A DNA stretch of 43,346 nt from a phage. Of the stretch, positions 7,103 through 43,262 are shown piece by piece. The stretch lies in assembly GCA_031490115.1 (NCBI GenBank), contig GCA_031490115.1_4355.1. The stretch is one strand, 5' to 3'. Below the pieces are notes generated by a model. The model was given only the letters and a program-made list of their open reading frames with translations. It ran no database searches and had not been told where the DNA came from. A program made the position numbers and the translations under genes. How positions within the stretch are numbered: position 1 is the stretch's first letter; each line of letters opens with the position of its first letter.

Positions 7103-7125
7103 GAAAGGGGCTTTAAGCCCCTTCA
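7103..7125. terminator. bidirectional hairpin terminator between convergent genes
   Basis: AAGGGGCTT-t-AAGCCCCTT, a perfect 9-bp stem, between the 6785-7099 gene and the convergent XRE gene. Confidence 0.6.
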
Positions 7126-7328
7126 CCTAACGCCAGCCACTTGGCGTCTACTTCCAGAACTTCCGCCAGTTTGAACAGCGTTGCCGGGCGGACGTCCTGA
7201 GTTACTCCAAGTGCCAGTTGGTTAATCGCGCCCTGGGAAACGCCGGTCAGGGCCGCCAAACGGCGCTGGGAGATGCCGAGTTCTTTACGGCGTTGTTCTA
7301 CACGGATACCTAGTTCAGATGGTTGCAT
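7113..7328 (-). CDS. XRE-family HTH transcriptional regulator (Cro/CI-like)
   Basis: 71 aa, RRKELGISQRRLAALTGVSQGAINQLALG is a classic XRE HTH; AAGGAG 8 nt upstream. Confidence 0.8.
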   Translation of the reverse strand: MQPSELGIRVEQRRKELGISQRRLAALTGVSQGAINQLALGVTQDVRPATLFKLAEVLEVDAKWLALGEGA

Positions 7329-15707: not shown

Positions 15708-15841
15708 ACATCATAGCCCCAATTCCGGCATTGCAAAAACGTATCAAGGAACTCGAAGAAGAGGTTCTGCGGCTACGTCAGCAAAGAGACGCCGCTAATG
15801 CGCAACTGGCGTTTGTACTGGAGAAGTTATCAGAAGAGTAG
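15704..15841 (+). CDS. small coiled-coil protein (45 aa)
   Basis: ATGA-coupled ORF, heptad-like KELEEEVLRLRQQRD. Confidence 0.35.
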   Translation: MNIIAPIPALQKRIKELEEEVLRLRQQRDAANAQLAFVLEKLSEE

Positions 15842-37163: not shown

Positions 37164-37244
37164 ATACCCTCCTGTTTCGATATGACAATCATATCAGTCG
37201 GTAACGTATTGGCATAATCATACGCATTTAAGGTTAAAAAGAGC

Positions 37245-37276
37245 TTGATTAAATTCTACATTCAAATGTAGAATTT
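37245..37276 (+). promoter_or_regulatory. promoter with embedded 26-bp palindromic operator
   Basis: TTGATT (37245-37250)-N18-TAGAAT (37269-37274); perfect 12-bp inverted arms AAATTCTACATT/AATGTAGAATTT at 37251-37276 around a CA centre. Confidence 0.55.
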
Positions 37277-37305
37277 AAACGTACACTTAAACAGGAGAAA
37301 TACAC

Positions 37306-37959
37306 ATGAAACTGCAAACATTAGAGTTCCCTTATGGAGAAATCACTTTTGACCGTGAAAACTTTATTAACGTAAACGAGCTGGTTGACCAGATGAACCG
37401 TTGGCGTTTAGACAACGGCATGGGGGCCAGAGAGCTTCGCCAGGTCATGGCAACGGATGGCTTCAAGATTTTCAAGGAGGAATGCGAAAAACAACTCGGA
37501 ATCGAGAATGCCATAAGGGCGACGAAAGGCCGAAACGGTCGCACCTTTGCATGTCTCCATCTGGCAGTATATATTGCTGAGCAATACAGCGCCTATTTCC
37601 ATTTCCTCGTTATCGACCGCTTTATCACACAACGGCAGGTAGAACTACGAAACATTGGCGCGGTGAGCTTTGTCGAGCTTAACGCTGCCGTTAGTCGAAT
37701 GATCGAGCGCACGGAGGGAAGAATTGGCCACAGTGGACACTTCATACAGGTGGCTAAAGCGGTAAAGGAATCCGTAGATATCCGCGACGTAACGGGTTTC
37801 GATACATGGGACTCTCAGGATGCGAAGACCAATCAGTTGCGAAGTGACATCCAGAAAGCTCTGGTGACGCTTCTTGACATGGAGGCCGTTAATACATGGG
37901 GTGAACTGAAAGAGGCGATACCTCGGGTTGTGCGTAAATGTGCGGCTAATATACGTTAA
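37306..37959 (+). CDS. KilA-N domain protein
   Basis: 217 aa; N-terminal region (...NGRTFACLHLAVYIAEQYSAYFHFLVIDRF) fits the KilA-N/APSES-type fold; AGGAGAAA upstream. Confidence 0.55.
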   Translation: MKLQTLEFPYGEITFDRENFINVNELVDQMNRWRLDNGMGARELRQVMATDGFKIFKEECEKQLGIENAIRATKGRNGRTFACLHLAVYIAEQYSAYFHFLVIDRFITQRQVELRNIGAVSFVELNAAVSRMIERTEGRIGHSGHFIQVAKAVKESVDIRDVTGFDTWDSQDAKTNQLRSDIQKALVTLLDMEAVNTWGELKEAIPRVVRKCAANIR

Positions 37960-37963
37960 AACT

Positions 37964-37990
37964 AAGGCCCCTAGCGGGGCCTTTCTATTT
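37964..37990. terminator. bidirectional terminator
   Basis: GGCCCC-tagc-GGGGCC followed by TTTCTATTT; overlaps the portal stop. Confidence 0.6.
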
Positions 37991-39458
37991 ACTCCTGTTG
38001 TTGCGCGGACTGCGGAATTTCTCCTGCTACCTGAGCAACCGCACCCAACGGCAGCGGTGCGTCCCTAATAGCGTTCTGAATGTCCTCATCGGTCCAGTCG
38101 GTTACGCCAGCCTTACGCAACGCGGCGTAGTAAGCAGTAGCTGGTAGCAGGCCTGCGTTAATGTCCGTCATCCACTGAGCGCGGTCCTGAGCTGTCATCG
38201 GTTGCAGGAAGAACTCCATGTTCAGCTTGAATTCAATCTCTGTGTCTTCGCGCAACCCTAGCATCGCCGCTACCCAGCGCAATGCATCGGTATACGCCAT
38301 ACTTACGTTACGTGCGATTGTCGCCATAACAGACGTATCCGCGCCACGTTGCAGGCGGGCGGATTCGGCGGTGATTTGCTGCGTCGGGGTGATAAGCTGC
38401 GCACCAATCTGAATGGCCTGATTCTCTTTATCCAGCATATTCTGTTTGGCGAGGTTGTTCTCTCCTGCCTGAACAAGAAATGCATTGCCGCCGTAACCGA
38501 TGTTATGGCCCGAACGCGACCCCATGCGCACGCCGTGAGGGTTGGCTTCTTTCCACTGTTCCATGCTCATGTTCTCGCCAGGGGCGATGAACAGAGTAGG
38601 CTGGCCTACAACGAAGCTGGATTCCTCGTTGTCCGCGCTGTTGCGGAAATGCCCGATATTAAGCTCAGCTAACGGCAGCAAAGGTGCATCATCAATGGTC
38701 ACATCGTTGTTGCTTGCCCCAATGAACGTGAACGGGATTTTGCCCCGTAACTGTTCGCCAAGTTCCGGGAATATTTCGATTACATCATCCTGAGCGCCAC
38801 CTTCGGCATCGAAGCGATAGATTCGCTGGCGGTAGCGCCCGTCAATCAAATCGAGAACGCGGTATTGCTCGCCGAATTTTGTTTCAAACTCAGCGCCTGG
38901 TTCCGAGTATTCCCATGCCTCACGCAATACAACCATCGTCACGCGGTTCACTGAACCGATGCGGGTGAGTCTCCAGTTGATAATGTTCTCCGCGGTATAG
39001 AATGCGATTACCGGGTTTAATAATCCCGCGTTCTGCTCTGCCGCCGTTGCTGCGGCTGTTTCCGGGGCGTCCACCAGCAACCCGCCACGACCCACCGAAT
39101 CAATCTCCATTAGCGTATCCTGTGCGTGCTGCCACAGCCCGACACCAGAACCGTCCGCGTTACGTAACAGGTACTCCAGTTCAGGCGGTATAATCTGCTC
39201 GGGGTCTTTGCGCATGACACTGCCGACCATCCCCACCAGCGTTCTCTTGGTGAAGTTGTAGCAGATAGCGCCGTTCTCGTATTCTTCCTGTCGCTGTGCT
39301 GCGTAGGTCTGGTCAGGCTCGTTCTTCCCGACGTTGCGCAGATAGCGGATAAGGTCGCCTTCAAGAGCGTGGCGTACCTTCTGCCATTTATCGGAGTGAC
39401 GCAGCCATTCCCGGTGTTTTGTCTTAACACCCTGATTCTGACCGTTCATAGTTAACAT
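37989..39458 (-). CDS. portal protein
   Basis: 489 aa, between the large terminase and the head morphogenesis gene. Confidence 0.75.
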   Translation of the reverse strand: MLTMNGQNQGVKTKHREWLRHSDKWQKVRHALEGDLIRYLRNVGKNEPDQTYAAQRQEEYENGAICYNFTKRTLVGMVGSVMRKDPEQIIPPELEYLLRNADGSGVGLWQHAQDTLMEIDSVGRGGLLVDAPETAAATAAEQNAGLLNPVIAFYTAENIINWRLTRIGSVNRVTMVVLREAWEYSEPGAEFETKFGEQYRVLDLIDGRYRQRIYRFDAEGGAQDDVIEIFPELGEQLRGKIPFTFIGASNNDVTIDDAPLLPLAELNIGHFRNSADNEESSFVVGQPTLFIAPGENMSMEQWKEANPHGVRMGSRSGHNIGYGGNAFLVQAGENNLAKQNMLDKENQAIQIGAQLITPTQQITAESARLQRGADTSVMATIARNVSMAYTDALRWVAAMLGLREDTEIEFKLNMEFFLQPMTAQDRAQWMTDINAGLLPATAYYAALRKAGVTDWTDEDIQNAIRDAPLPLGAVAQVAGEIPQSAQQQE

Positions 39459-43116: not shown

Positions 43117-43262
43117 TCCTTCTCTCCTGCATAGGCTGTTTTCAGTGCCTGCATTGCCGCGGCCCAGAACGCGTCAGCCGGGATATTGCTGCTCAGGTTA
43201 TTGACGGCGATGCGCGCCATCAGTTGTGCGTCTTCGAATGCTTCGGTATCTGTGATTTTCAT
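43113..43262 (-). CDS. hypothetical small protein (49 aa)
   Basis: First gene behind the promoter at 43296-43324; GGAG SD. Confidence 0.35.
   Translation of the reverse strand: MKITDTEAFEDAQLMARIAVNNLSSNIPADAFWAAAMQALKTAYAGEKE

Follow-up and report, generated by a model that had tools for sequence, protein, structure and literature searches.

KilA-N, from which the SBF/APSES cell-cycle factors of fungi descend, ranks among the domains most widely spread in DNA viruses, and antirepressor or host-toxic roles are the stereotype attached to proteins of this family. Among regulatory loci, the lambdoid cI/Cro operators with their immunity types and the autorepression of I-TevI at its own promoter are well known, as are the morons, i.e., promoter-gene-terminator units placed between genes which adjoin in related phages, classically carried by temperate phages and expressed from the prophage. 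A KilA-N protein with a cognate DNA element has been described in BstA, a prophage-encoded abortive-infection protein that is neutralised by an allele-specific element, aba, at the 5' end of its own locus (bioRxiv 10.1101/2020.07.13.199331). The present study deals with a KilA-N gene and the perfect palindrome (dyad) in front of it, situated in a stretch of 43,346 nt of phage DNA (GenBank assembly GCA_031490115.1, contig GCA_031490115.1_4355.1). This stretch is called the window throughout and belongs to a Guernseyvirinae-like Escherichia coli phage with EcoPhCCP1 as its closest relative (96% identity). From the comparison of this locus with its relatives it is proposed, at a probability of roughly 0.62, that the KilA-N protein, as a dimer, binds the dyad as its operator and thereby represses the promoter of its own gene (negative autoregulation).

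Like BstA and aba, the gene and its dyad, which together travel as a cassette, combine a short, putatively cognate DNA element 5' of the locus with allele-specific pairs of protein and DNA. However, aba measures 63 bp, bears terminal direct repeats, spans the start codon and is not a promoter dyad, and the gene for BstA, in prophages, directly follows cI, with which it has the promoter in common, whereas the cassette was found among siphophage structural genes, between the portal and head-morphogenesis genes or beside the tape-measure gene. Membership in the BstA family was rejected as well: the BstA hidden Markov model of PADLOC recognises BstA of BTP1 (1.9e-124) but not the window protein (E up to 1), and hhalign of the family profile against BstA detected no relationship (probability 0.2). 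With the lambdoid cI/Cro operators and I-TevI the locus shares a dyad over the putative regulator's own core promoter, and with the lambdoid immunity types it shares the joint change of operator and candidate recognition residues as well as the exchange of modules by recombination. It differs from the lambdoid systems in possessing a KilA-N/APSES domain instead of a lambda-type helix-turn-helix (HTH), in displaying one site per genome and in being a single-gene cassette placed antisense in a structural cluster, with no lysogeny switch seen around it. Its own sigma-70 promoter and terminator, its absence from the corresponding junction of the Kagunavirus K1H and its presence at another junction in Segzyvirus resemble a moron; in contrast to classical morons it occurs in siphophage genomes outside bacterial chromosomes and is apparently self-regulated. 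Among proteins of similar fold, the fungal APSES and SBF-MBF proteins (Mbp1, 1bm8; PCG2-DNA complex) are eukaryotic factors for MCB/SCB sites, which show 16-18% identity and have unrelated C-terminal domains, and DdrC of Deinococcus radiodurans (7qvb, 7udi) is a chromosomal DNA-damage-response protein with no associated dyad operator.

A palindrome of 26 bp had been reported at 37251-37276 in an initial annotation made from the sequence of the window. Its core, AAATTCTACATT-CA-AATGTAGAATTT, was located exactly there, and the arms even extend by two bases on each side, resulting in a perfect inverted repeat with 14-nt arms (37249-37262 and 37265-37278) around the 2-nt centre CA (Table 1). This is the longest perfect inverted repeat of the whole window. 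With the longest perfect arm at a loop of up to 12 nt as the statistic, an arm of 14 nt was reached in none of 300 first-order Markov simulations of a 43-kb window (mean 9.4, maximum 13) and in three of 300 simulations of 43 kb at AT-rich intergenic composition; the arm length of the dyad is far beyond chance. No second occurrence of the 11-nt half-site exists in the window, further binding sites with up to five mismatches did not exceed chance expectation there, and blastn of the dyad against 5,426 E. coli genomes, a search of low sensitivity with an AT-rich query of 34 nt, retrieved no similar site.

The same annotation had placed the palindrome over the spacer and the -10 hexamer of a promoter, TTGATT-N18-TAGAAT, and the consensus scan agrees, with the dyad spanning the edge of the -35 hexamer, the spacer and the -10 hexamer. 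The promoter matches 9 of 12 consensus positions, which on its own is weak evidence, with four promoter-like matches of that grade observed in 3 kb against 2.5 expected. A homologous site is labelled as an RpoD-type promoter in the GenBank records of AG11 and Jersey, every related cassette type presents a -35/-10 pair at the equivalent position, and the geometry of dyad and promoter is the same in all four main dyad types, A, B, C and C'.

Table 1. Positions of the features of the KilA-N cassette in the window.
Feature	Position	Strand	Basis or remark
Perfect dyad TTAAATTCTACATT-CA-AATGTAGAATTTAA, type A, putative operator	37249..37278	no strand	inverted-repeat scan, simulation, comparison across types
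-35 hexamer TTGATT	37245..37250	+	consensus scan
-10 hexamer TAGAAT, inside right arm of dyad	37269..37274	+	consensus scan
Ribosome-binding site AGGAG, 8 nt 5' of ATG	37293..37297	+	sequence reading
Coding sequence, 217 aa, KilA-N domain and helical C-terminal domain	37306..37959	+	homology searches, AlphaFold2 model
KilA-N/APSES-like winged-helix domain, residues 1-108	37306..37629	+	
Specificity island, codons 41-72	37426..37521	+	15/26 columns discriminating types A and B; loop before 44-48 helix through first wing strand
C-terminal helical domain, residues 111-217	37636..37956	+	
GC-rich hairpin terminator AAGGCCCCTAGCGGGGCCTT	37964..37983	no strand	terminator scan
Mobile cassette: promoter, dyad, gene, terminator	37237..38000	+	shared with Segz_1, absent from K1H

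About 40 cassettes from three phage backbones were available for comparison. In the main types the dyad begins right after the -35 hexamer, about 55 nt upstream of the ATG, and its sequence falls into discrete types, in which both arms are altered symmetrically and the position is kept. These are type A (AAATTCTACATT-NN-AATGTAGAATTT), type B (AAATGGTATAT-N4-ATATACCATTT), type C (GAATACTA-N10-TAGTATTC), type C' (AAATACTAC-N8-GTAGTATTT), an imperfect C-like dyad (ATGTACTAC-N8-ATACTACAT) and type D (AAATTAGGAATATAATTT), which is shorter (18 bp) and lies over the -10 hexamer. Types A, B, C and C' retain a frame of 26 bp even where inner positions of the arms decay, and across types the half-site has the common form [A/G]AAT-NN-TA.... 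The -35 hexamers of the other cassette types read TTGCAA, TTGACA, TTGACT and TTGCAT. Positions 3-4 of the -10 hexamer (TAGAAT, TACCAT, TAGTAT, TATAAT) are taken up by those half-site bases that vary with the type; in the sigma-70 consensus, these are the positions where change is best tolerated by RNA polymerase. Furthermore, the centre of the dyad (37263-37264 in the window) was seen in two reverse-complement states, CA/TG in type A and CTAT/ATAG in type B, an observation made in the window, in AG11, ER12 and RA112 (L001, L066, L067) and in three further loci (L002, L019, L055); this gives the impression that a hairpin or template-switch flip-flop has inverted the loop and left the arms perfect.

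The gene had been annotated as encoding a KilA-N-type domain, an assignment now backed by profile matches of its relatives and by structure prediction. While the window protein itself stays below the gathering cut-off of Pfam PF04383, with 20.4 bits against 23.8 (E 4.6e-4, residues 13-105), the profile is matched by 36 of the 49 aligned family members, with a best E of 7e-18, and an exhaustive HMMER search found about 90 distant relatives of 23-35% identity, mostly roughly 210 aa long. The AlphaFold2 model built from the family alignment (predicted local distance difference test score, pLDDT, 90) displays an APSES-like winged-helix alpha/beta fold in its N-terminal half, with strands 4-8 and 11-15, helices 23-36, 44-48 and 51-64, strand 70-72, a basic loop 73-79 (TKGRNGR), strand 80-82 and two further helices; the C-terminal half (residues 111-217) forms a helical bundle. 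The top structural match of the model is DdrC, a dimeric DNA-binding protein; phmmer against the sequences of the PDB found no solved structure related by sequence, DdrC included, and membership in the DdrC family was rejected, as sequence homology was not detectable.

The protein classes distinguished at residues 41-72 match the dyad types one to one. The class [AT]RE..VMAT..[ED][NS]..[AST] accompanies dyad type A, FKH..LMTT..KD..[IV] type B, [ET]KN..LL[SA]T types C and C', and QPRN..ILKT type D. When 14 sequences of type A and type B cassettes were aligned, the two types were discriminated by disjoint base sets at 26 of 780 columns, and of these 10 lie in 37245-37272, 15 in codons 41-72 and only one elsewhere, a synonymous difference in codon 27, with none in codons 73-217; the replacements concern residues 41, 42, 43, 47, 49, 67, 68 and 72. 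Because such columns are nearly absent from the 150 nt that separate the two islands (5' untranslated region and codons 1-40), where A and B are 83-93% identical, dyad island and codon island are not one contiguous block. Types A and B were each found in both Jerseyvirus and Segzyvirus backbones and C-terminal sequence variants are shuffled over the dyad types, from which it follows that recombination is frequent and that dyad and residues 41-72 stay paired nonetheless. TUMS_E19 (L006 2333-4024) carries two cassettes in tandem, a B gene with a B dyad and a C gene with a C dyad; two matching places per record were likewise noted in TUMS_E15, TUMS_E6, S101, S120 and S142.

Thus, the proposal of the initial annotation that the dyad serves a dimeric regulator as operator, at the promoter of an inserted gene for a KilA-N protein, gains support from the conserved position, the switching of both arms and the covariation with residues 41-72, with the KilA-N protein itself as the most likely regulator. 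In the sequence of events envisaged here, a host sigma-70 promoter would drive the 217-aa protein of a self-contained, moron-type cassette, and the N-terminal KilA-N domain, with its APSES-like winged helix, would recognise the dyad that occupies spacer and -10 hexamer. The C-terminal bundle most likely renders the protein dimeric. Bound to the dyad, the protein would block RNA polymerase, an exclusion suggested because the dyad covers both spacer and -10, and the gene would be shut off once enough protein had accumulated. The discrete types (A, B, C/C', D and C-like) may then be read as specificity types in which half-site and residues 41-72 have changed together. Physical binding, dimerisation and repression are what we infer from these patterns. 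Among the type-specific residues, one group flanks the predicted HTH region (41-49) and another leads into the predicted wing (67-72); since the wing of the APSES protein PCG2 reads DNA bases (PMC4862756), this placement, as read from the predicted secondary structure, is plausible for candidate contact residues.

Residues 85-217, which include the C-terminal domain with its probable function in dimerisation or as effector, are almost invariant over all dyad types. Between pairs of sequences, codons 86-214 (37561-37950) display 11-19 non-synonymous against 23-77 synonymous differences, with a non-synonymous divergence (dN) of 0.03-0.07 and a synonymous divergence (dS) that is saturated in several pairs. 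Such purifying selection suggests a conserved partner or activity besides dimerisation.

Several points weigh against autoregulation by a co-adapted dimer. The dyad is only about 150 nt away from codons 41-72, so physical linkage contributes to the association, and the synonymous divergence between A and B, saturated in the protein island and intermediate between the islands (dS about 0.76), fits old maintained alleles as well as co-adaptation. The dimer, for its part, is a probable one, suggested by the symmetric site together with the helical bundle and the likeness to DdrC. Strict pairing is broken in the clade of AG11 (L001 1835-1968), ER12 and RA112 (L066, L067), where the B-type gene is also preceded by a perfect A-type dyad. 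There, a 62-nt tandem duplication has resulted in a B promoter-dyad unit followed by an A-type dyad and then by the B-type gene, and the -35 hexamer of the A-type unit is weakened to TCGGTT or TTGGTT (TTGGTT in ER12 and RA112). Every B protein hence comes with a B dyad, beside which a non-cognate one can remain. The dyad of type D is short, with arms of 6-7 nt and a different spacing, and no clear dyad accompanies the promoter-like site of a distant homologue, that of Vibrio phage 1.054.O.

Apart from the KilA-N protein, the initial annotation had named an XRE regulator (7113-7328) as a possible partner of the dyad, and the window does encode a 71-aa protein of the Cro/CI HTH type there, on the minus strand. 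As a dyad over a -10 hexamer is a generic repressor geometry, the operator could belong to this or to a host protein, with the KilA-N protein as regulated cargo. This seems very improbable, and the XRE protein was rejected as partner: Segz_1, which has little besides the cassette in common with the window, carries the identical type-A dyad and lacks an XRE homologue, whereas a host factor is opposed by the four or more different dyads in phages of the same host, Salmonella. Besides, in different backbones the dyad type follows residues 41-72 of the protein that the cassette itself encodes, and the searches for a similar site in E. coli genomes (by the insensitive blastn) and elsewhere in the window were negative. 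The palindrome might, on the other hand, function as a nucleic-acid structure, either as a hairpin of the late transcript, which is antisense to the cassette and passes from the portal gene to the head-morphogenesis gene (attenuation, processing or stability), or as a DNA cruciform. The changes in both arms do keep the pairing, RNA hairpins of -10 to -15 kcal/mol are predicted on both strands for A, B, C and C', and the flips of the centre suggest occasional extrusion or template switching of the palindrome. Yet type D hardly folds (-1 to -4 kcal/mol), G-U intermediates were not seen among the dyad types, and Rfam gave no match and nothing near gathering scores. The outer half-sites are fixed in the 26-bp frame while the inner stem decays (in type C to 8-nt arms with a 10-nt loop), as is predicted for the site of a dimeric protein and not for a hairpin. 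A function as intrinsic terminator was rejected, given that the dyad was not picked up in the terminator scan and has an AT-rich stem with the nearest minus-strand T-run about 8 nt past it, instead of a GC-rich stem with an immediate T-run. Moreover, the dyad lies upstream of the expected transcription start (near 37281) and would be absent from the cassette mRNA, and a hairpin offers no reason for the covariation with residues 41-72. This explanation is considered unlikely.

Closer to BstA and aba, the protein could bind its cognate dyad mainly for self-recognition or immunity, the dyad marking or protecting the genome of its carrier, and the C-terminal domain acting against DNA without a cognate site, e.g., that of co-infecting phages. 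The KilA-N protein BstA is neutralised by a cognate, allele-specific element and the cassette likewise has discrete cognate types; the C-terminal domain is under the extreme purifying selection described above; some phages hold two cassettes of different type; and the non-cognate dyads stacked upstream in the AG11 clade and in L023 are what acquired cross-immunity would look like. Nevertheless, the protein is not in the BstA family, the carriers are siphophages outside bacterial chromosomes and not prophages, and the stacked dyads are more simply regarded as leftovers of cassette replacement, such as the D-type promoter with five codons in S111. The position of the site exactly on the core promoter already implies transcriptional control, and self-recognition as the main function is judged doubtful. 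A related and equally tentative idea is that the cassette is a module for competition of phage against phage, equivalent in siphophages to BstA and aba, in which the invariant C-terminal domain harms replicating DNA and the type-specific KilA-N domain recognises a cognate "self" dyad that both silences the gene and exempts the carrier. If this were true, the additional cassettes and foreign dyads seen in the AG11 clade, L023 and TUMS_E19 would represent cross-immunity, and the diversification of specificity into discrete types would be explained. Autoregulation by the KilA-N protein is preferred to all of these.

As to its origin, the gene had been taken for a plus-strand insert between portal and head-morphogenesis genes, and this is confirmed, since in K1H these two genes adjoin, with a hairpin alone between them and the cassette absent. 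The cassette is the only substantial similarity of the window to the complete genome of Segz_1 (78% identity over 765 nt), by which its bounds are delimited; with its own promoter and terminator between genes that adjoin in a related phage it has the organisation of a moron. Three other short stretches (52-117 nt, 73-87% identity) at 43146-43262, 2665-2738 and 15774-15825 are common to the window and Segz_1 and look like short coding segments, not regulatory modules. In the window the cassette is oriented antisense within the late head-gene cluster; in Segzyvirus (Segz_1, ASO78B, Vi II-E1) it lies between tape-measure and tail genes, likewise antisense to the late genes, and in a third backbone between an AAA_25 gene and the gene of the small terminase. 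A hairpin homologous to that at the end of the window gene is annotated as a terminator of both strands in ASO78B. Leftward of the cassette promoter, a promoter-like site on the minus strand (ATGCCA-N16-(TG)-TATGAT, 37188-37215) is directed into the head-morphogenesis gene (start codon 37163), and its predicted start site is situated about 82 bp from the dyad centre, which lies upstream of it. This site could restart late transcription beyond the inserted terminator; at the corresponding position the cassette-free K1H shows a hairpin only.

Homologues were detected in 342 phage records, 335 of them Salmonella phages and only three Escherichia phages, whereas bacterial genomes are nearly free of them (one contig only in a scan of 185,579 species genomes); the carriers are siphophage genomes of 40-49 kb outside bacterial chromosomes. 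Traces of former cassettes are stacked at the locus. In L023 (about 2220-2500), D-like and A-like remnants precede a C' unit, and in S111 (L068 about 1262-1531) and TUMS_E19 a D-type promoter with the first five codons (MKVQT) is fused to a B unit; these stacked promoter remnants point to repeated cassette replacement at one site. Judged from such genome comparisons, the cassette is a self-contained unit, mobile between phage genera and repeatedly replaced at a single locus. In IMGVR_UViG_638275545_000001 (L017 / L047) the type-C gene is frameshifted after codon 16, with a dyad that is intact except for one extra base in the spacer; either a pseudogene or an error in sequencing may explain this. 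A metagenome scaffold of the third backbone (L026 2250-2500) has a P0033 cassette promoter flanked by several GTTCTA-type inverted repeats, e.g., AGTTCTATTGGGGCATAGAACT, and, at a distance of 245 nt upstream of the gene, a further dyad that resembles type A (TTAATTCTAC...ATAGAATTAA).

Two other readings of the protein were examined, of which that as an amidase was rejected and that as a nuclease found no support. For an amidase, neither a Pfam or NCBIfam amidase match nor an amidase among the fold matches was obtained; the label "amidase" goes back to PHROG 6095 (a full-length match, in name only) and to many GenBank records, e.g., PQ384582, NC_021777 and JQ007353, and appears to be a mis-annotation propagated across hundreds of Salmonella phage genomes. 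For a homing endonuclease or other nuclease, no Pfam nuclease domain (GIY-YIG, HNH, LAGLIDADG and similar) was found, and fold matches to I-DmoI reached only an E of about 1.

Promoter-overlapping dyads, autorepression and morons are textbook matter. The novelty lies in a viral KilA-N protein for which a putative cognate site can be identified, which exists in several naturally swapped specificity types and which, as a cassette of one gene, moves between phage genera not found as prophages. GenBank records annotate at the dyad site a promoter only, and literature searches on KilA-N in Jerseyvirus and Guernseyvirinae or on transcriptomes of such phages yielded nothing relevant and no description of the cassette. 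A correction of the "amidase" label would touch hundreds of Salmonella phage genomes, with several candidates for therapy or biocontrol among them. For the KilA-N family, four to six matched pairs of protein and site are available in nature with these cassettes; the pairs differ by about eight protein residues and, in each half-site, by two or three bases, and thereby supply candidate recognition sequences and candidate specificity residues for a viral KilA-N domain that are directly testable.

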